Source of the DNA: an uncultured Acidimicrobiia bacterium
GTDB taxonomy: Bacteria > Actinomycetota > Acidimicrobiia > Spongiisociales > JAOTWH01
Assembly (NCBI GenBank): GCA_964195995.1
Contig: CAXMQS010000088.1
Coordinates: 10,082-74,081 of the forward strand
DNA length: 64,000 nt
Reading direction: 5' to 3'
Shown here: positions 15,158 through 45,407 of the stretch, in pieces
Layout of the letters: the number at the start of each line of letters is the position of its first letter
Numbering within the stretch: the first letter of the stretch is position 1
Position numbers and translations under genes: made by a program
Notes under the pieces: model-generated
Told to the model about the DNA's origin: nothing
The model's input: the letters and a program-made list of their open reading frames with translations, nothing else
Databases searched by the model: none

Positions 15158-16180
15158 CTAGTAGACGGAAATTCCGCTGCCCGCCCGCAGGCGTCCGATG
15201 ATGGCTGCTGGCTCACCGAGCTCAGCCACGATCGTCGCGGCACCGGCCTCATCGGTGGCGATGAGGAGGCCGCCACTGGTCTGAGCGTCGGCCAGCAAGA
15301 CCCTGTCGACCTCGTCTGTGGCTCCGAAGTCGGTGAACCCCTCTGCGAATGTCAGATTGCGCTTGGTTCCCCCTGGAACGAAACCCTCGACCACCAGTTG
15401 ACGGACCCCGGGAAGAAGCGGGACAGACGCGCTGTCGATGTCTGCTCCAAGCCCCGAAGCCGTAATGAGCTCTCCGAGGTGTCCGAGGAGCCCGAAGCCG
15501 GTGACGTCCGTGGCGGTTACCACGCCGACTCCCAGCATGGCATCTCGCGCCGCGGAATTGAGGGTTGCCATCCAGTCGGTAGCGAGTTTCTCGAGCTCGC
15601 CGTCGATGGCGCCACGCTTGAGCGCCGTCGAAACGATGCCGGTGCCTATCGGCTTGGTTAGCACAAGTACCTGGCCGGCGGTTCCGCCACGATTGGTGAC
15701 TATGCGGTTGGGGTGAACAGTTCCGGTAACGGCCAGACCGAACTTCGGCTCGGGATCATCGACAGAGTGACCACCGACGAGGGTGCACTGCGCGTCAACG
15801 AGGACACTGGCGGAGCCTGCCAGTACGTCGGTCAGCAGCTCGAAGGGGAGCGTGTCGCGTGGCCAGCCGACCATCTGCATCGCCGTCAACGGCGTTGCGC
15901 CCATCGCATAGATATCCGAGAGCGCGTTGACCGCGGCGATGCGACCCCAGTCGAACGCGTCGTCGACGATAGGGGTGAAGAAGTCAACCGATTGCACCAA
16001 CGCCACCTCGGCGTTCAACCGGTAGACCCCGGCGTCATCGGCGTTGTCGAGTCCGACCAAGAGGTCGGGATGTCGTATCGCCGGGTTGTTGTCCAAAGGG
16101 CGCAGAACCTGCGCCAACTCGTCAGGTGCGAGCTTGCACGCTCAACCGGCGCCGTGGGAGTAGGCCGTCAGCTTGACCAC
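15158..16180 (-). CDS. selD: selenide, water dikinase (selenophosphate synthetase), Sec-containing form
   Basis: Extended 63 nt beyond the tracked start: GTG 16180, then ..LTAYSHGAG-TGA(16144..16142)-ACKLAPDEL. This matches the E. coli SelD sequence LTQYSHGAGCGCK. AGGAGG lies 4 nt upstream of the GTG. Confidence 0.85.
16100..16114 (-). promoter_or_regulatory. candidate SECIS apical hairpin for selD
   Basis: GCGCAG-GUU-CUGCGC (6-bp stem) starts 27 nt after the UGA. Confidence 0.3.
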
Positions 16181-16304
16181 ATCACCTCCTCTTTGCGGCG
16201 GCGAGTGTACGGGTTCGACAAGAGCGCGAACGCTGACCCCTTGCTAAGGGTCGCGGAAGAGATACCATCGCTGCCAACGGGATGCCATCGTGTATCCGGT
16301 TCCA

Positions 16305-25533: not shown

Positions 25534-28500
25534 CTAACGGTCCTGGGCGATGGCCACGAGATAGATCTTGCCGTTCTTGTACTCGAAGTGGGCCATCCAA
25601 GACCCGGTCACGCCGTCGCGGCCGAAGGACATGAAGTGGAAGTTGTGGAGCTCCGTCGGGATGAGTGCAGAGACGAGGATCGGCGTATCGATCGCAGGCT
25701 CGGGCGAGACGGCGGCGGCCGCCAGGAACGGCTCAGCGATGGCCTCGGTGAAGTCGACGCTATGGAAGGGGATGCTGCGGCCTGCCACGACCGCCTCGAT
25801 GTCCTGGGTCCGCACAACCACGGGCGAGCCCCCAAGACCAATAGCGAGTCCGCGCTCGCCGACGAGGGATCCGACTGATCCCTCGTCGGCGAAGGCGTTG
25901 CGCATCCGCTCGATGATGGCGCCAACCCTTTCGTCCTCGACGAACTCTTCGTCGGTGACCTGCTCTGTGAGGTAGTAGAAGTCCACCCAGCCGCTTCGGT
26001 CCCCGGCCTCGATCTCTATCCAGTCGATCCCTTCGAGTGGTCGCACCTTCGAGATAGCAACGATGTCGCGTGCCGTCGGACTGAGGTGGTGCCTGATCTT
26101 CGAGTCATCTCCCGGCTCTTCGTAGATCGGAAGCGAAGACTCGGGATCCCGCATGACGACGGCGTACAAGCGACGCTTGCCGCCGAGGAACGGAAGGATC
26201 CTGACTACGGAGCTCCAGCGGAATCCTCCAAGAAGCATCGACCACATCAGGGAGATCAACAACAGGATCAACGGAATCTGGAGCGTTTCGAGGCTCTGGA
26301 AGAAGGCACCCGTGAGCAGCTCGACGCCACTTGGCGCCAAAACCTCGATGCCGTCGGGCACGTCGAAGTTGATGAGGGGACTCCCGACTTCGTTCGATAG
26401 ATCGGTCGCAGTGTCGAATACGTCACGAGGCACGACGATGAAGATCGAGGACTCGTCAGTGCCGCCCTTGCCGTCAGAAGCGCGATAGGAAACCTCGATA
26501 CTCCCGAAGAAGCCCGGGTATGCCCGGAACGTGACGGTCCCGTCGGCATTGGCCACGAAAGACCCGTTGGAGTCGCTCCCGACGGAGGCCAGGATCAGGA
26601 AGTCGCCATCTGGGTCGATGTCGTTGGCGAGCACCTGGATGTTGACCTCGAAGTAGTCGTTCACGACAAGGAAGTCCTGCATGCCGACAGGCGGATCGTT
26701 GAGGGGGAACACCCGGACGTCGACCGCCGCCGAGGACGTGCCGCCGTTGCCATCGGAGATGGTGTACCTGAAGTGATCGATTCCGGTGTAGTTGTGGGCT
26801 GGCGTGTAGGTCACTTGCCCGCCGACATCGATGGTCAGGGTCCCGTGTTCGGCCGCAGTCACCGCGGTGACGAACAGGCTGTCACCGTCTGGGTCAGAGT
26901 CGTTGAGGGTGAGCTCGAAAGTCCCCGTCGAGTCCTCGTAGAGCACGTATGCGTCGTCGACCGCAAATGGCGGCTTGTTCTTGGCCTCGATCGACAGTGT
27001 CACCCTGACGGGCTCCGAGAAGGCGAGGCCGTCGAACACCCGGTAGGTGAAAGAGTCGTCGAAGTCGTTGTCGGCGCTATGCGCATAGGTGAACGAGCCG
27101 TCCGAATTGAGAGTCAGCGTCCCTCGGATCGGCAGGGCCTCGATGACAGAGGCGATCGGGTCGCCGTCTGGGTCCGTGTCGTTGGAGAGGACGCCTGGAG
27201 CGCCGATGACCATCGTGTCGTACTGGACCAAGTCGTAGTTGTCCGGAAGGCCCGTTGGCGGCCGATTGGTGTTGAGCACAGTGAGGCTGAAGGCGGTAGA
27301 TGCCGAGAGGCCTCCAGGGCCCGTGACCGTGACCGTGATCACGTAGACGCCGCTGTCGTCATACCCCGGAGTGCCGCTGATCAAGCCAGACGCCGGATCA
27401 ATCACCAGGAACGGAGGTAGTCCGATGGCCGAGAATGTCAAGGGGTCGCCGTTGATGTCACTCCCCGTCGCCGTGACGGCAAAGGGATCGATTTCGGAGA
27501 TCGTCGCATCCGGGATGGGATCGATGGCCGGCGGGTCGTTGACAGGAACCACGACGACGGTCACGTCCGCCCAGCCGCTCCAAGCCCCATCGTTGTCCTG
27601 TACCCGATAGGCGAAGGAGGTCGACCCGTTCCAATCGCCGACCGGGCTGAAGTCGAACGTGCCGTCGGCGTTGTTGGTGACGGTCCCGATGGTGCCGGTG
27701 TCGTCGAGCTGCACGGAAGGCGCGAGCAGCGTCCCATCGATGTCGGAGTCGTTGCCGAGGACGCCTCCGGTGGTGAACGGGACGTCCTCGGGTGTGTTGA
27801 ATGCCGGGCCCGAGTCGTCGACAGCGATTGGCGGATCGTTGACATCGCCTACCGTGACGCTGACCGACGCCCAGTTGGACCAGGCTCCAATGTCATCCTG
27901 AACGCGATAGTCGAACGAGGTGGTGCCGTTCCAGTCGGCTGCCGGACTGAAGTCGAAGGTCCCATCGGCGTTGTTGATGACGGTTCCGATGGTGCCGGTG
28001 ACATCGAGCTGTACCGAAACCGGGACCAGCGTGCCGTCGATGTCGGAATCATTGCCGAAAACGTCTCCGGTGGTGAAGGGCGTGTCCTCCAGGGTGTTGA
28101 AGGCGGGACCCGAGTCGTCGATCGCCACCGGTGCGTCGTTGACCCCAGTGACGGTGATGGTCACAGTGGCGGTGTTGGAGACACCAGAGTGGGAGTCGGT
28201 GGCTCGGTAGGTGAAGGTGATGTCACGGTCCTCGCCCAGCGCCAGGTCCTGGAAGTCGGTGCCGGGATCGAAGTCGAAGGTGCCGTTGACCGCACCCAGG
28301 GCCGCGGCGCCTTCACCGACACCCGGTGGGGTGACAATGGCGTAGACCAAGGTGGTGGGATCGTCGTCGGAGTCGACGTCGTTGGAGTCGAATGACCCAG
28401 TGACGACGGGGCCATCTTCGGTGGCGTTGTCAGAGACGTCTTGGGACACCGGTGCGTCGTTGACCCCAGTGACGGTGATGGTCACAGTGGCCCAATTCGA

Positions 28501-31500
28501 CCAGTCACCATCGTCGTCCTTAACCCGGTAGTCGAAAGTAGTGGTCCGGCTGTCGCCAACGGCCAAGTCGTGGTAGCTAGCACCGGGGTCGAAGTCGAAA
28601 GTGCCGTTGGCGTTGTTGGCGACAGTGCCCACCGTCGCCGCGTCGTCCAGCTCGACGGAGGATGGATCGAGGATGCCGTCTGTGTCGAAATCGTTACTGA
28701 GTACGTCTGCCGTCGTGAACGACGTGTCCTCGTCCGTGCTGAAGCCAGCCGGTCCAGGATCGTCAACCGCCGTAGGCGGATCGTTGATGTCGTTCACCGT
28801 GATGCGGAACACCTGCGTCGGCGAGGTGTTGTCGTTGGGCGCAGGCGCACCGAGGCCCGAGTCAACCAACTCGATAGTTATGTCGGCAAATCCACTCAAT
28901 GCCGGTGTCGGCGTGAACGTCAGCGTTCCGGTCGGCGACAGTGCAGGGCCCACCGAGAACAGGCCGGGGTTGGTGTTCGTAACGATGTTGAAGCTGACCG
29001 TCTGCGGCGGCACCTCATCCGGTGGCCCCTCCAAGATGGCAGTGGCCCAAGCCACGAAGGTCTGCGGTGGTGCATCCTCAGCTACAACGACGTCGGCACC
29101 CTTGGTGAACGACGGCTCATCGTTGATGGCGGTGATGGTGATGTTGAAGGTCTGGGTCGGTGACACGTTGTCGTTGGGTGGGACGTTGGATCCCGAGTCG
29201 GTGAGGTAGATGTCGACCGAGGTGGTGCCGTTGGCGTTGGCCGCAGGGGTGAAGGTCAGGTTGCCAGTGGCGGGGTCGACCGCCGGCTGGGTGCTGAACA
29301 GGGCGGGGGTGGCTGCGGTGACGGTGAAGGTCAGGATCTGTGCCGACTCGTCGGCGGGACCCTCGGTGATGCCAGTAGCCCAGCCACCACCCAACAGGTA
29401 GGCGCCGGAGTCCTCGTCCACAGTGACATCGGCACCCTTGGTGAACGACGGCTCATCGTTGACGGCATCGATGGTGATGTTGACGGTCGCAGTGTCGGTA
29501 AGTAGACCGTCCGATACCGTGTAATCGAAGGTGTCGCTCCCGTTGAAATCGCCAGGAGGGTCGTACACGAGTTCGTCGTCGGTCGGGTCGCCAGGCGTGC
29601 CCATGACGTCGAGGGAGATCGTTCCTCCGTTGGCGGAGACAGCATCGAAGCTGTCTATCTGCAGGGCATCGATGTCGGCATCGGTGTCGTTCGCCATGAC
29701 GTCGACGTTGACTGCTGTGTCCTCATTCGTAGATGGGGTGTCGTCGTTTGCGATCGGTGCAACGTTGACGTTGCGGTTCGGCCCGAATTCCGAGGTGTCC
29801 TTGGTCACTGAATCAACTGATATCGCCGATGCCGAATCACCAGCAGCCAGGGCCGCCGTTACGAACGGCCCCCAATTGCCGAGGCCGTCGGCCGTAACGA
29901 AACCGAGGTACTCGACTCCCTCGCCGAAATCCGAACCGCTCAGCGTGTCTCCGAGCCCGGCAACGGCCCGATAGATCTCGACCCGCGAGTTGGGGCATGC
30001 CAAGCCGCTCATAGTCGTGGTCCCTGTGACAAGCACAGCACTCGTGATCAGCGGCGAGTCCGTGCCGAGGTTGCCGTCGCCGACGACGGTGCCGCAGGTA
30101 TTGGCGACCGAGCTATCTCCAAGAAGGATGCCATCGTTGGGGGTGATGCCGTCGCCGGTCGCCGTGCTACCCCCGGCAGCCACTAAATCGATGGCCGGAC
30201 CACCGTTGCTACCGAAGTCGTTGCGCGTCACCTCATTGCTGATTGCAGCATCAGACACGATTACTCCGGGACCGACATTGCCGGTAAGGACATTGAGTCG
30301 AACGGTGTTGCCGTCATCGTTGACTCGGATAGCGCCCGTCTGAACGGCGCGTTGCCCAGACCCGGTAATGGTGTTGTTCTCGATCAGCGTTCCGGTCATC
30401 GTTCCGTCGATACCCATCGCTCCAGAGTCGACTATGAGATTCCCACTGATCGTCCCACCGGAGCTGCCGCCGCCGTGGTTGATGCCATCTGCAATGGTGT
30501 CAACCTGGCCCGACTCCCTTACCTCGTTGCCTGAGATAGTGGTGCCGGTTGTGTCCGACGCGACGATGGCGTCGTTGTCCAAGAAGCCGATGAGGTTGTT
30601 GCGCACGCTCGCGCCATCGGTCTCCCTGAGGTAGACGCCCCGCAGCGTGCTGACAACAAGGGGGTCAACGAACCCATCCGGTGCTGAACCGATGACGTTG
30701 CGTTCGATGATGATCCCACTGGGCCTCATGAGCGGTACGCCGGCCATGTCAATGCCTCCAGCGAATCCCCAGGTGGCGAGATCGCGGATGGTGTAGTTGT
30801 CGGGAATCTGACCGGTGCTGGCATTCGAGGAGAAGGAGAACCCAACACCTATGCCCGAATCAGATCGCATCACTCCGAGCTCGGGCTTGGCGACTTGAGG
30901 CAAGGCCACCGGGCCTGCACCTACGTTCATGCCACCTGCGGCATTGGCTCCCAGAGAACCCAAGTTGGTGTCGCGAACCGTGACGCCGTCCGTCAGGTCG
31001 AATGCAGTGCCGTCGATGGTTGTATCTGCGTCGTGAGTGTCGGCCAGGGTCTCACCGACAGCACTGCCGGTGTAGTCGATCTCCCACCATTTATTGAGGC
31101 CGGGGAGATCGTCGGCGTTGGTGGGAACCGCCGGGACGAACCGCATGGCGTTGCCGAGGTTGATGGCGTTGGCATTGCGAATGAACTGATCAAGCGAACC
31201 CTGATATGAGCTCGCCGTGTAGCCGGCCGCCCACGCGGGCTCGAGATTCGTGACTACGTTGAAGCTGAAGCCGAAGTCGACAGATGCCACCCCGCCCGAC
31301 ACGCTCACCCTGGCAATGTGCTCAGCGGTAGTCAGGCCAGAAGCGTCATCATCGGTGGCTCCATCGACGCCTCCAAAGCAGGGTCCGACCCCCATCCGCT
31401 CCGCCGTGCCACCGAGCCCATCCGCGCACCAGCCTCCGTTCGGTCCGTAGGTCTGCTCGGCCCACGGCGTTGTCGAGAGGTAGGAAGCATGGATACCAGC

Positions 31501-33402
31501 AGATGGAGAGACGGTGAGAGAATCCACAACCACCCAGTAGTCGACCGGCAGCCCTGCCGTGAGGGTGTAGCTGCCGCCCGCCCCGGTTACAGCCGTGTCG
31601 ACCAACGTGTCAGCACCGTCGGGAATTGCGTTGCCGTTGTCCTGGTAAAGGCGGACGTCAACTCCGGCCCGACCCGGGTTGGCGCCGTCGCCGATGGCCT
31701 CGGCCCCGGGGAGCAGGTTGCCGTCAACATCCTCAAACACTGTCCCTGCGATCTGGCATCCTGAAAGATCGCTGGTCGAATTCGAAACCGAGGTCTGCCG
31801 GTAGCCGGCGATCGCCGAAGGGACCACCGCGGTCTGGGTGGTTTCGCCGGTCGGGAACTGGGCCTGGACGATGTAGGCACGGTCGGAGCCGAGGGGAAGT
31901 CCGAAGTGGACGGCCAGTGGATCTTGCGAGCCGTGACCTCGCCCACCGTTCACGTCCCGCACGCCGCTCAGAGCCGTCACCCCGTCACATGCGAAGAGCT
32001 GCAAGGTGGCTCCGACCGCGTCACGGTTCAGCCCCCCGCCGAGGTCATGGAGAGCCCGCACGAACATGTAGTCGATCGCCCCGGTTTGGACTGCGTCGTT
32101 ACGCCACAGTTCGTTGGCCGCTGCCGTTTGGCTGATGAGAACGTCGAGGTCACCGTCGTTGTCGTAGTCGGCGAACGACGCCCCTTCGCCATCACCCGCT
32201 CCGCCGACAAAGGTATTGGCTCCAAAGGTGATCGACCCGGGAGTCGAGGTGTTCGTATACAGGAGATCACCGGCGATAGTGTCGGTGAGAAATAGATCCA
32301 GGTCGCCATCATTATCGGTGTCACCACAGGCGGCACCATCGATGATGCTGCCCCCCGGGACGACCGGCACTCCGGTGGCGGTGAACGTGCCGACCGGTCC
32401 CTGCCGGTAGACCTGAGTCGTTGGGTGGTCGGTCCAGATGATGTCGAACAGCCCGTCGTCATCGAAATCGCAGAAGGCGACTGCTCCTTTGTTGGTGTTG
32501 AGGACGGCCACATCAAACCCACCCGCCACGAACGAACCACCGGTGTTCGCCCACAGGTCGACAAGGCCCTCCTTGCGCCCGAGGATGTCGACGTCACCGT
32601 CGCCATCGAAGTCTCCGACGGCGGAGTAGTCGCCGGAGGCGGCCACTTCCGGGAGACCGATCCCGTTGGGATCGCCGTTGGGGGTCCACCAGGTGAACGT
32701 GCCGGTGCCGTCGTTGTCCCACAGGTCGATGCCGAAGTCGTGGTTATCCATGATGATGTCGAGGTCGCCGTCGCCGTCGTAGTCGAGCAGGCCACCACCC
32801 TCCAGGTTGAAACCGCTAAGGGCGTCTGGCATGTCCAGCAGCACCACCGGGTTGCCTCCCGCATCACCGAAACCGTACGGTGGCACTCCGGCCGGGCCCT
32901 TGTTTATCCACACCGACAGGCGGGTGATCGCCTGGGTGATGAGGTCGACATGCCCATCGTTGTTGACGTCACCCCACACCACCTGCCGCCGATCATCAAC
33001 CCCTGCCAAGTTGGGCGTAGCGAGGCCGGGGGCATGAGTTGCCGTGACGTTCACGAACGAGGGGTTGGGGAGGCTGCAGTCGCTCCGGTAGAGCTGGGTG
33101 TACTGGTCAGGCCCGACCGGGTTTTCGGTGGTGACGATTACGTCGAGGCACCCGTCCTCGTTGAAGTCGGCCCAGGCCAGGCCGGCGTCCTTGATGCCAA
33201 CCGTTTCGAGACCCACCGGAGTTGCCGCGAACGCGGCGAAGGCCGCAGGAGCCACCAGAGTCAGGTTGCCGAGGGCGATCGTAAGAGCCGCGAACAGGGC
33301 GAACGGGCGCTCTATCCCCTTGGCGAAACGAACCCCCCTAGAGCGCGGTGAGGGCCCGGGCGTAGCCGGGCCAGGATCTGAGGTGAGTCTTACCCATCTC
33401 AT
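25534..33402 (-). CDS. giant (2,622 aa) single-pass surface protein: FG-GAP/VCBS + ASPIC/UnbV, SdrD-B-like, parallel beta-helix, ~11 cadherin/Ig-like modules, TM, cytoplasmic SH3-like tail
   Basis: Signal-like N-terminus. Repeated DxDGDGDxD FG-GAP motifs. NRDAVGA..GSQDPLAVHFGL is UnbV_ASPIC-like. ISGN/IENN beta-helix turns. Repeated VNDAP/VNDPP-bounded modules. TM segment LQIPLILLLISLMWSMLLGGF. Confidence 0.9.
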   Translation of the reverse strand: MRWVRLTSDPGPATPGPSPRSRGVRFAKGIERPFALFAALTIALGNLTLVAPAAFAAFAATPVGLETVGIKDAGLAWADFNEDGCLDVIVTTENPVGPDQYTQLYRSDCSLPNPSFVNVTATHAPGLATPNLAGVDDRRQVVWGDVNNDGHVDLITQAITRLSVWINKGPAGVPPYGFGDAGGNPVVLLDMPDALSGFNLEGGGLLDYDGDGDLDIIMDNHDFGIDLWDNDGTGTFTWWTPNGDPNGIGLPEVAASGDYSAVGDFDGDGDVDILGRKEGLVDLWANTGGSFVAGGFDVAVLNTNKGAVAFCDFDDDGLFDIIWTDHPTTQVYRQGPVGTFTATGVPVVPGGSIIDGAACGDTDNDGDLDLFLTDTIAGDLLYTNTSTPGSITFGANTFVGGAGDGEGASFADYDNDGDLDVLISQTAAANELWRNDAVQTGAIDYMFVRALHDLGGGLNRDAVGATLQLFACDGVTALSGVRDVNGGRGHGSQDPLAVHFGLPLGSDRAYIVQAQFPTGETTQTAVVPSAIAGYRQTSVSNSTSDLSGCQIAGTVFEDVDGNLLPGAEAIGDGANPGRAGVDVRLYQDNGNAIPDGADTLVDTAVTGAGGSYTLTAGLPVDYWVVVDSLTVSPSAGIHASYLSTTPWAEQTYGPNGGWCADGLGGTAERMGVGPCFGGVDGATDDDASGLTTAEHIARVSVSGGVASVDFGFSFNVVTNLEPAWAAGYTASSYQGSLDQFIRNANAINLGNAMRFVPAVPTNADDLPGLNKWWEIDYTGSAVGETLADTHDADTTIDGTAFDLTDGVTVRDTNLGSLGANAAGGMNVGAGPVALPQVAKPELGVMRSDSGIGVGFSFSSNASTGQIPDNYTIRDLATWGFAGGIDMAGVPLMRPSGIIIERNVIGSAPDGFVDPLVVSTLRGVYLRETDGASVRNNLIGFLDNDAIVASDTTGTTISGNEVRESGQVDTIADGINHGGGSSGGTISGNLIVDSGAMGIDGTMTGTLIENNTITGSGQRAVQTGAIRVNDDGNTVRLNVLTGNVGPGVIVSDAAISNEVTRNDFGSNGGPAIDLVAAGGSTATGDGITPNDGILLGDSSVANTCGTVVGDGNLGTDSPLITSAVLVTGTTTMSGLACPNSRVEIYRAVAGLGDTLSGSDFGEGVEYLGFVTADGLGNWGPFVTAALAAGDSASAISVDSVTKDTSEFGPNRNVNVAPIANDDTPSTNEDTAVNVDVMANDTDADIDALQIDSFDAVSANGGTISLDVMGTPGDPTDDELVYDPPGDFNGSDTFDYTVSDGLLTDTATVNITIDAVNDEPSFTKGADVTVDEDSGAYLLGGGWATGITEGPADESAQILTFTVTAATPALFSTQPAVDPATGNLTFTPAANANGTTSVDIYLTDSGSNVPPNDNVSPTQTFNITITAINDEPSFTKGADVVVAEDAPPQTFVAWATAILEGPPDEVPPQTVSFNIVTNTNPGLFSVGPALSPTGTLTFTPTPALSGFADITIELVDSGLGAPAPNDNTSPTQVFRITVNDINDPPTAVDDPGPAGFSTDEDTSFTTADVLSNDFDTDGILDPSSVELDDAATVGTVANNANGTFDFDPGASYHDLAVGDSRTTTFDYRVKDDDGDWSNWATVTITVTGVNDAPVSQDVSDNATEDGPVVTGSFDSNDVDSDDDPTTLVYAIVTPPGVGEGAAALGAVNGTFDFDPGTDFQDLALGEDRDITFTYRATDSHSGVSNTATVTITVTGVNDAPVAIDDSGPAFNTLEDTPFTTGDVFGNDSDIDGTLVPVSVQLDVTGTIGTVINNADGTFDFSPAADWNGTTSFDYRVQDDIGAWSNWASVSVTVGDVNDPPIAVDDSGPAFNTPEDVPFTTGGVLGNDSDIDGTLLAPSVQLDDTGTIGTVTNNADGTFDFSPVGDWNGSTSFAYRVQDNDGAWSGWADVTVVVVPVNDPPAIDPIPDATISEIDPFAVTATGSDINGDPLTFSAIGLPPFLVIDPASGLISGTPGYDDSGVYVITVTVTGPGGLSASTAFSLTVLNTNRPPTGLPDNYDLVQYDTMVIGAPGVLSNDTDPDGDPIASVIEALPIRGTLTLNSDGSFTYAHSADNDFDDSFTYRVFDGLAFSEPVRVTLSIEAKNKPPFAVDDAYVLYEDSTGTFELTLNDSDPDGDSLFVTAVTAAEHGTLTIDVGGQVTYTPAHNYTGIDHFRYTISDGNGGTSSAAVDVRVFPLNDPPVGMQDFLVVNDYFEVNIQVLANDIDPDGDFLILASVGSDSNGSFVANADGTVTFRAYPGFFGSIEVSYRASDGKGGTDESSIFIVVPRDVFDTATDLSNEVGSPLINFDVPDGIEVLAPSGVELLTGAFFQSLETLQIPLILLLISLMWSMLLGGFRWSSVVRILPFLGGKRRLYAVVMRDPESSLPIYEEPGDDSKIRHHLSPTARDIVAISKVRPLEGIDWIEIEAGDRSGWVDFYYLTEQVTDEEFVEDERVGAIIERMRNAFADEGSVGSLVGERGLAIGLGGSPVVVRTQDIEAVVAGRSIPFHSVDFTEAIAEPFLAAAAVSPEPAIDTPILVSALIPTELHNFHFMSFGRDGVTGSWMAHFEYKNGKIYLVAIAQDR
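26430..29770 (-). repeat. in-gene tandem array of ~290-320-nt modules encoding cadherin/Ig-like domains
   Basis: 27541-27840 and 27841-28140 align in register with a 300-nt period. An exact 45-nt repeat occurs at 28126-28170 and 28447-28491. Confidence 0.75.
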
Positions 33403-42135: not shown

Positions 42136-43048
42136 AAGGAGGTTCATCAGAACCGCCGGCCTCGGACTCGCCACTATCCCCCTTGGAAGGTTCCTGGCGG
42201 CGTGCGGAGACGCAGCTGCCGAGACCAGTGTCGCCACCACCGGGCTTACAACCACCTCGACTCTTGCCGAGATCACGGTGGCGACAACCGCGGTAACGGC
42301 CACCGAAGCGGCGCCGGCCGCTGCTCCCCGGGCAGAGATCGTCGGCGCTCTATGTCGGGAGGCGTGGGGGGCGACGGCCGTCGGCACCAATGTCATTCCG
42401 CACACAATCGATCGCCTCACCGTGCACCACACGGCGTCCTTCCTCGATGACAACAGCAAGGCCCCCTCACGATTGAGGGGCCATCAGTCATATCACAAGA
42501 GCCTGGGCTGGCCGGACCTGGCATATCACATTGCCGTCGACGCCAACGGCAACATCTACGCCGGGAGACCGACGACGGCGCGAGGTGACACGGCCACCAA
42601 CTACGACCCGACCGGCCACTTCCTGGTTGTGGCCGAAGGGGACTTCAACTCCCAGCCAATACCCACCGCTCAGCTCGAGGGTGTCGCAATGGTGCTGGCC
42701 TGGGCGGCAACCGAGTTCTCGGCAGACCCATCAACAATCCGAGGACACCGAGATCTCGCCTCGACAAGTTGCCCCGGCGACGGCTTCTACTCCTTCATCG
42801 CCGACGGCACGTTGGAAGCCATGGTCGACGGGCGCATTGCCAACGGCGGCATCGATCTGCGCGTGGTGTGTGACGACGGCGCTTACGCCGCCGTTGCTGC
42901 AATCGAGGCCGGAGAGGTGCCAGCGCCACTCGCCACCCAGGCAAGCTTCTACCTGCGCAACTCCAACAGCCAAGGGAACGCCGACACCGTCATCGAGGAG
43001 TTCGGTGACAGCGACTGGATCCCGGTTAGCGGCAACTTCGGCGAATGA
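42128..43048 (+). CDS. N-acetylmuramoyl-L-alanine amidase (Amidase_2/PGRP) with Tat-lipoprotein signal
   Basis: ATG 42128 overlaps the nhaA stop. MDRRRFIRTAG..LAAC signal. Amidase motif LTVHHTAS..AYHIAVDANGNIY. Confidence 0.8.
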   Translation: MDRRRFIRTAGLGLATIPLGRFLAACGDAAAETSVATTGLTTTSTLAEITVATTAVTATEAAPAAAPRAEIVGALCREAWGATAVGTNVIPHTIDRLTVHHTASFLDDNSKAPSRLRGHQSYHKSLGWPDLAYHIAVDANGNIYAGRPTTARGDTATNYDPTGHFLVVAEGDFNSQPIPTAQLEGVAMVLAWAATEFSADPSTIRGHRDLASTSCPGDGFYSFIADGTLEAMVDGRIANGGIDLRVVCDDGAYAAVAAIEAGEVPAPLATQASFYLRNSNSQGNADTVIEEFGDSDWIPVSGNFGE

Positions 43049-43058
43049 GAACAACAGC

Positions 43059-43718
43059 ATGAGCCGGCGGATTCTGGTCTTGGTCGGCTGGCTGGTTATG
43101 ACAGCACCGACCGCGTTGGCTGCAGACACCGTCGGTGCGTTCGATCCTGATACCGCGATGTGGCATCTCCGTCTTGGTGACGACACTGCGACAACCTTCG
43201 AGTTCGGGAATCCAGGAGATGTGCCTTTCATGGGCGACTGGGACTGCGACGGCGTCGACACCCCCGGCCTCTACCGCCAGAGCGACGGCTTCGTCTATCT
43301 TCGCAACGCCAATACGACAGGGATCGCGGACATTCGCTACTTCTTCGGGGATCCGGGTGACGTCCCGCTGGCCGGCGACTTCGATGGCGACAACTGCGAC
43401 ACGGTGTCCCTTTACCGTCCAGCGATGCAACGTTTCTTCGTGATCGACACGCTCGGAAGCGATGACGGCGGGCTGGGAGCGGCTGCAACCGACTTCGTCT
43501 TCGGAGATCCCGGGGATCAACCATTCGCTGGAGACCTCAACGGCGACGGCATCGACACCTTCGGCCTCTACCGGGAGGCCACCGGCTTCGTGTACTACCG
43601 CAACTCGCTCGCGGAGGGGGTCGCCGATGCACAGTTCTTCTTCGGCGATCCCAACGACCAATTCGTCGCCGGCGACTGGACCGGAGACCACACTGACACG
43701 GTCGGTGTTTACCGATGA
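43059..43718 (+). CDS. secreted protein with four FG-GAP-like repeats
   Basis: Signal peptide ending ALA-AD. Four copies of F.FG(N/D)PGD.P..GD(W/F/L).GDG.DT.G.YR. The tracked upstream extension was rejected. Confidence 0.75.
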   Translation: MSRRILVLVGWLVMTAPTALAADTVGAFDPDTAMWHLRLGDDTATTFEFGNPGDVPFMGDWDCDGVDTPGLYRQSDGFVYLRNANTTGIADIRYFFGDPGDVPLAGDFDGDNCDTVSLYRPAMQRFFVIDTLGSDDGGLGAAATDFVFGDPGDQPFAGDLNGDGIDTFGLYREATGFVYYRNSLAEGVADAQFFFGDPNDQFVAGDWTGDHTDTVGVYR

Positions 43719-44104
43719 TCCTGGCTTGGCGACTTGGGCTGGGATGGCTTGTCGGCAGACATCGCATTCTGCTCACGACCGCCAACCGGCGCGTCGTACT
43801 GCCGTTTCGATTCTTCGCAGATACCTTCTACCTTCGTCGAGTAGAGGCGCCGTGGGTGGACGACCTCGCCGCCACCCCCACCGCCACCCTGCAGGCGTGG
43901 CCGGGCCCACGTCCGGTGAGAGTCCGCCAGATCGATGATCCCGAGGAGGCCGAACTCGTCGGCCGCCTGTGGGGTGACGGTGCATCCGTGATCGCACTGT
44001 CACCGACAGGCCAGCGCACCCCAGACATGACGGCGCCCGACCTCATGTGGGTGCTACCAACCGCCCTGGTCATCTTGGTGGCCGCGCGCCGGTTGTCCCG
44101 CTAG
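43715..44104 (+). CDS. hypothetical protein (weak resemblance to the DUF385/deazaflavin-nitroreductase fold)
   Basis: ATGA coupling. RILLTTANRR..P and W..DLAATPTATLQ resemble Ddn-family blocks only loosely. Confidence 0.5.
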   Translation: MILAWRLGLGWLVGRHRILLTTANRRVVLPFRFFADTFYLRRVEAPWVDDLAATPTATLQAWPGPRPVRVRQIDDPEEAELVGRLWGDGASVIALSPTGQRTPDMTAPDLMWVLPTALVILVAARRLSR

Positions 44105-44122: not shown

Positions 44123-44650
44123 ATGAAGCTTCCACCCTTGACCCTCAGCGATCACGAGAGCAACGACTACGAGCTGGTCTTCGAGCGGACGACGGTCATC
44201 GCTCTCGTCCGCTACTACGGCTGAGCTGGCTGTCTCGATTTCCTGTCGCAGTTGGCGACAGCTCATGCCACCATCCAGTCGCTCGGAGCCATGGTGATCG
44301 CCATCGGGCCCAAGGCGCAGTATCAAGCGGCACACCTATCGACGACCCTCCCCTATCCCTTGCTACTTGATCCCGAGCTGTCGGTACGGCGCCTCCTGGG
44401 AGTACGGGAGCAAACGGGGGCTGCGTTCTTCTTCAACGTGAGGGGCTGGCTGCGCTACCTGGGAGCCTTCTTGCGCCATCGCCACCAAGGCCGGCTCGTT
44501 GGCAGGCGACAGACCCTGCCTGCCGTAGCCATCGTTTCGCCACAGGGTGAAGTCCGGTGGCTCCATCAGGGCCGCTCCGTCGCCGACTATCCCAAGATCG
44601 CAACCGTCGTCGCCAGACTCAGGGAACAGACCGTGCCGCCAGCCCGTTGA
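44123..44650 (+). CDS. Prx-like (AhpC/TSA, PRX_like2-type) thioredoxin-fold selenoprotein, U-x-x-C motif
   Basis: From ATG 44123 the frame reads MKLPPLTLSDHESNDYELVFERTTVIALVRYYG-TGA(44222-44224)-AGCLDFLSQL. It continues in frame into tracked ORF 44252..44650. Confidence 0.7.
44243..44261 (+). promoter_or_regulatory. candidate SECIS apical hairpin for the Prx-like gene
   Basis: CUGUCGC-AGUUG-GCGACAG (7-bp perfect stem) starts 18 nt after the UGA. Confidence 0.35.
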
Positions 44651-44669
44651 TTCGGATGTGGCCGACTCG

Positions 44670-45407
44670 ATGAACCCGATAAGAGCCGCGGTGCGCGTAT
44701 GGCGAGCCCTGCAGCGAACAGCTCCCCCGAAACCAAGCGGTGACGGCACGGCATATCACGACGGATTCCGCCCGGTTCTCGAGGCTGTGCGCGATGGAGG
44801 CATCGGTGCCATTCCGGCCGCCCAACTGGACTCCTACCTGGCGATGCTCGGTGCTATCGACCCCGACGGACTCACTCGAGATCACGCGCTCGCCTACTGG
44901 CTCAACCTCTACAACGCCCATGCCCTTGCCGTCGCCGGGCGAGCCGAGAGCGCCAACGCGTCATCGGTGCTGCGCCTCAAGGGGGCGTTCAACAACACCG
45001 CGATCACCGTTGCCGGTGTCCCCATCTCGCTCGACGGGATCGAGCACGGCAAGCTGAGACGACTTGGGGATCCGAGGATTCACGCCGCATTGGTGTGCGG
45101 GGCCATCTCCTGCCCAACGCTGCGCTTCGAGCCGTTCGATGGTGACAAGATCGACGACCAACTCGACGACCAGATCCGCAGCTTCCTGGTCAACGGCGGC
45201 GCCGCGATGGACGGGAACACGCTGCAGCTATCGCGTATCTTCCTGTGGTTCTCCGGCGACTTCGTCCGCAATATGCCGGCGTGGCGACCGGCCGCCAAGA
45301 GCGACCTACTGCAGGCCCTCCGGCAGTGGCTTCCCGACAACGCTCAAACCGCCCAACGCGTCGAGTTCATGCGTTACGACTGGGGACTCGCCTGCACCGT
45401 TCGGTAG
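44670..45407 (+). CDS. DUF547 domain protein
   Basis: YWLNLYNAHAL and ALVCGAISCPTLR blocks. The start could instead be GTG 44658. Confidence 0.8.
   Translation: MNPIRAAVRVWRALQRTAPPKPSGDGTAYHDGFRPVLEAVRDGGIGAIPAAQLDSYLAMLGAIDPDGLTRDHALAYWLNLYNAHALAVAGRAESANASSVLRLKGAFNNTAITVAGVPISLDGIEHGKLRRLGDPRIHAALVCGAISCPTLRFEPFDGDKIDDQLDDQIRSFLVNGGAAMDGNTLQLSRIFLWFSGDFVRNMPAWRPAAKSDLLQALRQWLPDNAQTAQRVEFMRYDWGLACTVR

Follow-up and report, generated by a model that had tools for sequence, protein, structure and literature searches.

Does the in-frame TGA at positions 44222-44224 end a gene, or is it read as selenocysteine (Sec)? The question is raised by a redoxin locus in a 64,000-nucleotide stretch of DNA from an uncultured Acidimicrobiia bacterium (assembly GCA_964195995.1, contig CAXMQS010000088.1, positions 10,082 to 74,081 of the forward strand), which is called the window here and by which all positions are numbered. 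The list of open reading frames (ORFs) gives only a mechanical TTG-to-stop frame at 44252-44650, and the initial annotation of this DNA had proposed that this frame is the rear part of a longer selenoprotein gene. Very probably the complete product is a cytoplasmic, 175-residue thioredoxin-fold oxidoreductase of the PRX_like2/PRXL2 group, with the active site Sec34-Ala-Gly-Cys37, decoded through a selenocysteine insertion sequence (SECIS). That the UGA at 44222-44224 encodes Sec can be stated with high confidence, although insertion itself is predicted from sequence comparison. The selenoprotein interpretation held in each test that had been set for it beforehand, namely where the orthologs begin and whether Cys and Sec pair at the TGA column.

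The redoxin frame and its in-frame TGA

The redoxin gene lies on the forward strand (44123..44650). It starts with an ATG at 44123, comprises 175 sense codons and ends with a TGA stop at 44648-44650. Read from the ATG, the frame translates as MKLPPLTLSDHESNDYELVFERTTVIALVRYYG-U-AGCLDFLSQLAT... and contains a single internal TGA, the predicted Sec codon U34 (44222..44224, +). The active-site motif is RYYG-U-AG-C, in which U opens the U-A-G-C redox motif. Cys37, encoded by a TGT (44231..44233, +), is predicted to be the resolving residue of this UxxC motif and is invariant in an alignment of 16 Sec and Cys forms (alignment A4). It had been claimed that coding extends upstream of the TTG at 44252, from the ATG at 44123 through the TGA, and translation, codon composition and the span of the Pfam match all show this. 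For the 33 codons that precede the TGA, the G+C content at third codon positions (GC3) is 0.88 in the redoxin frame versus 0.58 and 0.36 in the other two. Downstream of the TGA the in-frame value is 0.73, and confirmed genes of the window have a GC3 of 0.75-0.78. When scored with U replaced by C, the protein matches PF00578 (AhpC-TSA) over residues 4-146 (1.5e-8, 35 bits versus a cut-off of 26) and PF13911 (AhpC-TSA_2) at 8.5e-7 (29.8 bits versus a gathering cut-off of 27). As the AhpC-TSA match spans residues 4-146, the domain crosses the TGA. No signal peptide is evident on reading the N-terminal sequence of the redoxin.

In a collection of 5.8 billion proteins, the four close relatives of the redoxin are all N-terminally truncated calls of 117-132 residues. 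The contigs of these four relatives, along with two genome loci, were used to obtain ortholog DNA, and all of the orthologs fetched have a TGA at the same codon, the same ATG, and a conserved N-terminal peptide ahead of the TGA. They comprise L001/L002/L003 from the Acidimicrobiia metagenome-assembled genome (MAG) GCA_029861395.1, L004, L005, the 96% identical L006 from Acidimicrobiia MAG BS1bin.31, and L007 from an uncultured-bacterium MAG, which is 42-45% identical. The TGA is kept at the same codon in six independent orthologs that span 42-96% identity. Orthologs that begin downstream of the TGA had been named as an observation that would refute the selenoprotein reading; instead, L001/L002, L004, L005, L006, and L007 carry both the conserved N-terminus and the TGA. 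In public databases these proteins are named either "hypothetical protein" or, at 132 residues, "AhpC/TSA family protein", with calls of 118-132 residues, and therefore the selenoprotein form is unannotated.

Searching 1.84 billion cluster representatives with a profile of the segment behind the TGA gave 128 relatives. Most of these are 115-140 residues long, and several start with MPC(R/L/K)DFLSQL at a Met directly after a TGA, a start that is verified by the DNA of two loci (L008 and L009), which reads RYYG-TGA-ATG CCC TGC. A minority of the 128 relatives are 172-195 residues long and have the motif RY[YF]G-C-x-P-C, whose first Cys falls in the U column. Ten full-length homologs have this reading, and at column 52 of alignment A4 there are 6 sequences with U and 10 with C. 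Metagenomes were scanned with a degenerate DNA pattern made from protein-invariant positions only (R-Y-[YF]-G-TGN-x-x-C ... A-x-[YF]-Q-A), which takes any TGN codon and ignores the hairpin region discussed below. At least 120 loci were found, and the matches listed are all positive with a hidden Markov model. Among the matches listed (n=120), the codon is TGA in 45, TGC in 66, TGT in 9, and TGG in none. Cys/Sec pairing at the U column is clear from the ten full-length Cys homologs and from the restriction to TGA, TGC, and TGT among the matches listed, and the Cys at this column in full-length homologs also bears out the proposal that the TGA replaces the first Cys of a CxxC-like motif.

Sec and Cys forms are mostly clade-coherent, with the nearest neighbour being of the same type in 102 of 106 sequences, and at least six Sec/Cys switches are seen on a neighbour-joining tree. 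The Cys form nearest to the window protein is about 40-41% identical. Residues that are invariant in the family are R30, Y31, G33, C37, A65, Q68, L72, D83, P133, G150, D155, Y156, and P157, of which P133 is probably the cis-Pro of the thioredoxin fold. One Cys form, L066, reads TGC CTC CCT TGC TAG, with an in-frame TAG right behind its CLPC motif and a product of 61 residues; a pseudogene or a misassembled metagenome contig is the probable explanation.

The hairpin behind the UGA and the Sec-type selD

A SECIS-type element had been sought at this locus, and a conserved, covarying hairpin that is largely missing from Cys forms was found within the ORF (44243..44261, +). It is made up of CUGUCGC (44243-44249), the loop AGUUG (44250-44254), and GCGACAG (44255-44261), which form a perfect stem of 7 bp that starts nineteen nucleotides past the UGA, with a UGA-to-loop spacing of 25 nt and a folding free energy of -10.3 kcal/mol. 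The consensus for bacterial SECIS (bSECIS) elements has a loop of 3-9 nt, a stem of 4-16 bp, a UGA-to-loop spacing of 16-37 nt, a minimum free energy (MFE) of -7.5 kcal/mol or lower, and a G within the first two loop positions that is usually followed by G or U (PMC13188914 Fig. 2A). The redoxin hairpin agrees with each of these values, its 5-nt loop having G at position 2 followed by U.

Four orthologs are invariant from just upstream of the TGA through the hairpin, even at synonymous sites. Where the amino acid is invariant and the codon degenerate, 12 of 17 codons in the TGA-hairpin region are also invariant in nucleotides versus 17 of 65 elsewhere (Fisher p=0.001, for a region chosen post hoc). 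The 19-nt hairpin is identical in L007 despite a protein identity of 42-45%. Distant Sec forms have other stems at the same offset, and 28 distinct stem sequences are found, such as CUCGCGC-AGUU-GCGUGAG, CUUCUGC-AGUU-GCAGGAG, CUCGCGC-AGGU-GCGCGAG, and CUCGUCC-AGUU-GGGCGAG. The best local hairpin has a median free energy of -10.2 kcal/mol in the 49 unique TGA forms versus -4.0 in the 59 unique Cys forms (Mann-Whitney p=3.5e-14), and at least five contiguous pairs from the apex are present in 43 of 49 TGA forms versus 3 of 57 Cys forms. In a gapless alignment in the register of a 4-nt loop, five of the seven pairs are altered on both sides, with a covariation score of 0.200 versus 0.072+/-0.012 in shuffles, a value reached by 0 of 500 shuffles.

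The loop itself also separates the two forms. Its consensus in Sec forms is A-G-[U/G]-U. All 49 Sec forms use UUG or GUG for the Leu/Val codon of the loop (alignment A5 columns 29-33, which are window 44250-44254), whereas 46 of 57 Cys forms have a codon beginning with C there (CUC/CUG), as is usual at high G+C. It is this loop codon that has been annotated as the TTG "start" of the truncated ORF (44252). Together, the 49 Sec and 59 Cys forms provide an internally controlled example of a bacterial SECIS constraining codon choice within an ORF (UUG/GUG versus CUC).

The window also contains a Sec-type selD (selenophosphate synthetase), as the initial annotation had said. The gene is on the reverse strand (15158..16180), with its UGA at 16144-16142 and a hairpin at 16115-16099, and from a GTG at 16180 that is preceded by AGGAGG it reads VVKLTAYSHGAG-U-ACK. 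The mechanical ORF list shows only the 319-residue part behind the TGA, and this part matches TIGR00476 at 1.4e-104. A tblastn comparison with E. coli SelD, used as a probe only, gave 44% identity and the reading YSHGAG*ACK, in which the TGA is aligned to the catalytic Cys17. The selD hairpin, GGCGCAG-GUU-CUGCGCC, lies 33 nt past its UGA and is comparable to the redoxin element. Going by the Sec-type selD, the organism would appear to decode UGA as Sec, and the wider machinery is likewise predicted from selD only. Sec use in Acidimicrobiia, including a Sec-type selD, has been reported for Actinomarina (2026 preprint), and the redoxin is a new entry for the poorly described selenoproteome of this group. 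A scan of the window for other Sec codons at loose thresholds gave only selD and the redoxin as convincing cases; a candidate at 39846-39844 (-) was rejected for its junk-like upstream frame. The neighbours of selD are an MFS transporter and mgtE.

Several results weigh against reading the redoxin as a selenoprotein of this family with a SECIS. At both gathering and permissive thresholds (E<=10), Rfam 15 gave no SECIS family at 44150-44350. It likewise gave none at the selD UGA region (16040-16220), which served as the positive control, and for this reason the negative at the redoxin is uninformative. With neither the redoxin nor the selD element detected by Rfam, the 49 unique Sec-form hairpins would be enough to seed a covariance model. 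Single-sequence RNAfold gave unremarkable MFE z-scores (-1.3 to -1.7, and -0.4 to -1.7 across the region) and a different MFE structure from one ortholog to the next, and only comparative analysis is decisive for the hairpin. The stem is invariant in the closest orthologs, with the covariation signal coming only from more distant members, and because the family sequences are phylogenetically related, the p-values given above overstate independence. The robust part of the hairpin argument is the contrast between Sec and Cys forms in one family together with the variety of compensated stems. ARAGORN found no tRNA of any kind in the 64-kb window, hence no tRNA-Sec, and selA and selB were found neither near selD nor elsewhere in the window; given that the window has no tRNA and no Rfam family, selC, selA, and selB would have to lie elsewhere. 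For the family assignment, the sole NCBIfam match of the redoxin is to NF040769, "SelL-related redox protein" (E 5.6e-18, residues 8-165 of 175 on profile positions 10-172 of 173), and its 65.2 bits fall short of the curated cut-off (120). Close Cys relatives, at 75-103 bits, do so as well, and only the distant P0081 and P0095 pass it.

Fold, predicted chemistry and alternative readings

Structural relatives were searched with a profile of 16 full-length family members. The best solved sequence relative is prostamide/prostaglandin F synthase (PGFS; PRXL2B/FAM213B, 9us9, also 9usa) with an E value of 3e-12, followed in the PDB by ResA and BCP-type peroxiredoxins. The RRFG-C-VV-C of PGFS aligns with RYYG-U-AG-C, with the catalytic Cys44 opposite U34 and the second Cys opposite Cys37, and a C-terminal GDY-P motif is present in both. 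However, PGFS is a eukaryotic Cys enzyme, its identity to the redoxin is only ~21%, and nothing points to a prostaglandin-like substrate in bacteria. An AlphaFold model was made not of the window protein but of its closest Cys homolog, P0013 (40% identical), using a 26-sequence alignment, and has a predicted local distance difference test score (pLDDT) of 93.9 and a predicted template modelling score (pTM) of 0.90. In this model the U-equivalent Cys40 is located between a strand (30-34) and the N-terminus of a helix (41-52), which is the canonical active-site position of the thioredoxin fold. A Foldseek search of the PDB with the P0013 model placed human PGFS first, with template modelling (TM) scores of 0.71/0.80, and then BCP/PrxQ and ResA. 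The proposed PRX_like2 assignment stands, as PF13911 is above its gathering cut-off and PGFS is the best solved relative in both sequence and fold.

The NF040769/SelL group shares the fold and the motif position with the redoxin. In eukaryotic SelL the motif is a UxxU diselenide and the SECIS lies in the 3' untranslated region (mentioned in PMC2398784), while the redoxin has U-A-G-C and one in-frame TGA. Peroxiredoxin (Prx)-like thiol:disulfide oxidoreductase selenoproteins were reportedly catalogued by Kryukov and Gladyshev in 2004, and the Zhang/Gladyshev surveys and reviews list them too. This class, which is defined by pfam00578 and a UxxC or UxxU motif (PMC9312934), has been catalogued since 2004-2008, and its UxxC members rank with the selenoprotein groups that are most abundant in ocean metagenomes (PMC2398784, PMC9312934, PMC13188914). 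With a PF00578 score above cut-off and a UAGC motif, the redoxin falls in the Prx-like UxxC class by the rule of the reviews. It shares with the class the AhpC-TSA domain, Sec as the first residue of UxxC, the existence of Cys homologs, a bSECIS within the ORF, and the predicted function. It differs from the class, whose catalogue exemplar is WP_010940744.1, in that it appears to belong to a distinct PRXL2-like clade, RY[YF]G-[U/C]-x-x-C ... GDYP, from high-G+C and probably actinobacterial genomes. It also differs in its operon link to DUF547, which is not described in the class reviews. Sec forms make up ~40% of the sampled members of the RYYG-[U/C]xxC...GDYP clade and have a family-specific SECIS with an AGUU loop. 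The reviews list a single PF13911/cd02970 selenoprotein, whose motif is UxxS rather than UxxC, the 2026 selenoprotein review does not mention NF040769, and the RYYG-[U/C]xxC clade seems to have no individual description in the selenoprotein reviews. Like the fdhF-type bSECIS of E. coli, the redoxin element is a hairpin that lies inside the ORF directly behind the UGA and has a small apical loop in which a G is followed by a U. It differs in having no primary-sequence similarity to E. coli elements and no matching Rfam model; in the redoxin family the loop is A-G-[U/G]-U, and the stem always begins 20-21 nt from the U of the UGA. The redoxin is very probably a previously unannotated selenoprotein of a kind that has long been known. 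General knowledge of selenoproteins is unchanged, and a specialist would not be surprised. What the corrected annotation does is restore a complete redox enzyme where the database form has no active site, and dozens of relatives have been shortened in the same way.

It is proposed that the UGA at 44222-44224 would be read as Sec and not as a stop, with the hairpin at 44243-44261 acting as a bacterial SECIS that would recruit SelB carrying Sec-tRNA(Sec) to the ribosome. Selenophosphate would be supplied by the selD that is predicted to be a selenoprotein itself. In the enzyme, the Sec34 selenolate at the N-terminus of helix alpha1 may attack a peroxide or endoperoxide, or a disulfide, after which Cys37 would resolve the intermediate into a selenenylsulfide and a thioredoxin-type reductant would regenerate the redoxin. 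In its sub-clade the redoxin would be co-transcribed with the DUF547 protein, which would be its most likely partner or client. The chemistry, substrate, and reductant are suggested by analogy with CxxC/UxxC thioredoxin-fold enzymes and PRXL2B, and confidence in them is lower than for Sec.

Three other readings of the locus have to be weighed. If the TGA were a genuine stop, the locus would be either a decaying pseudogene or a 33-residue peptide followed by a re-initiated C-terminal protein of 119-132 residues. Gene callers do annotate the downstream part only (118-132 residues), TGA is an ordinary stop elsewhere in the window, and the TTG at 44252 and later ATG/GTG codons are possible starts. 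However, the truncated product would lack strand beta1 and the entire active-site motif, the putative TTG start sits in the hairpin loop, and a hairpin that is specific to TGA forms would have no role. The column holds Cys codons in homologs, with no other stop among the matches listed. The TGA and the upstream peptide are conserved at 42-96% identity in at least six independent assemblies, and a pseudogene is unlikely because of this conservation across orthologs. Taken with its evidence, a genuine stop is extremely improbable. A full-length frame that is clearly selected would also fit with a UGA that is read through without selenium, as Trp, Cys, or Arg, by near-cognate or suppressor decoding or through reassignment of UGA. 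Sec at this codon is predicted from sequence, and selA, selB, and selC were not seen in the 64-kb window. Against this, TGA terminates 9 of 30 long non-overlapping ORFs as well as the redoxin gene itself, and global reassignment is rejected on these grounds. The aligned residue is Cys and never Trp (TGG in 0 of 120 among the matches listed), and the position is that of the catalytic nucleophile of a CxxC motif, which is a typical site for Sec. In addition, the conserved hairpin fits the consensus of a SelB-dependent bSECIS, and the Sec-type selD of this genome itself needs Sec decoding. Read-through without selenium is thus judged to be very improbable.

The remaining alternative accepts the selenoprotein but sees it as a classical Prx-type peroxidase, in which Cys37 would attack the peroxide instead of Sec34 serving as a thioredoxin-like nucleophile. 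The AhpC-TSA score above cut-off, the alignment of Cys37 with the peroxidatic Cys of peroxiredoxins, the presence of BCP/PrxQ among the best structural neighbours, and the name "peroxiredoxin" carried by one JGI relative all fit this reading, which is nonetheless unlikely. The Prx signature PxxxTxxC is not present, as the redoxin reads R30-Y-Y-G-U34-A-G-C37, with Arg30 at the Pro position and, family-wide, Sec or Cys at the Thr position. Known Prx selenoproteins have Sec in place of the peroxidatic Cys (TxxU) and not at the Thr position (PMC2398784, PMC13188914). The best sequence and fold match is PGFS/PRXL2B, which has a CxxC motif, and after it the disulfide reductase ResA.

DUF547 and the gene neighbourhood

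The initial annotation placed the redoxin in a coupled run consisting of a secreted repeat protein, a weak DUF385-like protein, the redoxin, and a DUF547 protein. The DUF547 gene downstream stands, on the basis of its Pfam match (1.5e-21), while the DUF385-like neighbour does not, and the coupling is limited to a sub-clade. The DUF547 gene (44658..45407, +) starts with a GTG at 44658 (or an ATG at 44670), 7 nt past the redoxin stop, and is the probable operon partner of the redoxin. DUF547 is found directly downstream of the redoxin in both Sec members (L001, L002, L006, L020, L034, L086, and L090) and Cys members (L042, L094, and L112), with an intergenic gap of -4 to +82 nt. The DUF547 proteins that follow the redoxin have an invariant LVCG[AS]xSCP[TS]LR Cys pair (CxxxxC) and a conserved C-terminal Cys. 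Because Sec and Cys members alike have the linkage, it is older than the Sec/Cys switches, which speaks for a functional partnership. The linkage is confined to the sub-clade with the motif [U/C]-[A/P]-[G/P]-C, and of the 85 loci whose sequence extends far enough downstream, 8 have it. A redoxin-DUF547 fusion, suggested by long ORFs in L034 and L094, was rejected because these ORFs are off-frame high-G+C artefacts.

It is possible, if doubtful, that the redoxin and the DUF547 protein make up a dedicated two-component selenol/thiol redox system, in which the CxxxxC pair would be reduced or oxidised by the U/CxxC motif, and that the clade forms a distinct, uncatalogued selenoprotein subfamily. 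If true, the two-component system would give the first clue to what DUF547, a domain that occurs in organisms from bacteria to plants, does. The operon already offers a testable lead on DUF547 function. The comparative SECIS evidence is unusually clean, and the DUF547 operon link is modestly interesting.

Upstream of the redoxin, 43035-43718 (+) encodes a probable secreted protein with repeated GD.P..GD(W/F)(D/N)GDG.DT.G.YR units and no Pfam match. It is followed by a 129-residue ORF (43715-44104, +), which has no Pfam match at E<=1 and hence no support for the DUF385-like label. Synteny with L001 covers these two genes, an Amidase_2 protein and, on the downstream side, an N6_N4 DNA methylase. 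A different redox context is seen at L009, where the divergent neighbour (607-1263, -) of a relative of the U-MPC type is a DSBA/Rv2466c-like thiol oxidoreductase, distinct from the DUF547 operon. Elsewhere in the window, a very large ORF of 2622 residues occupies 25534-33402 on the reverse strand.

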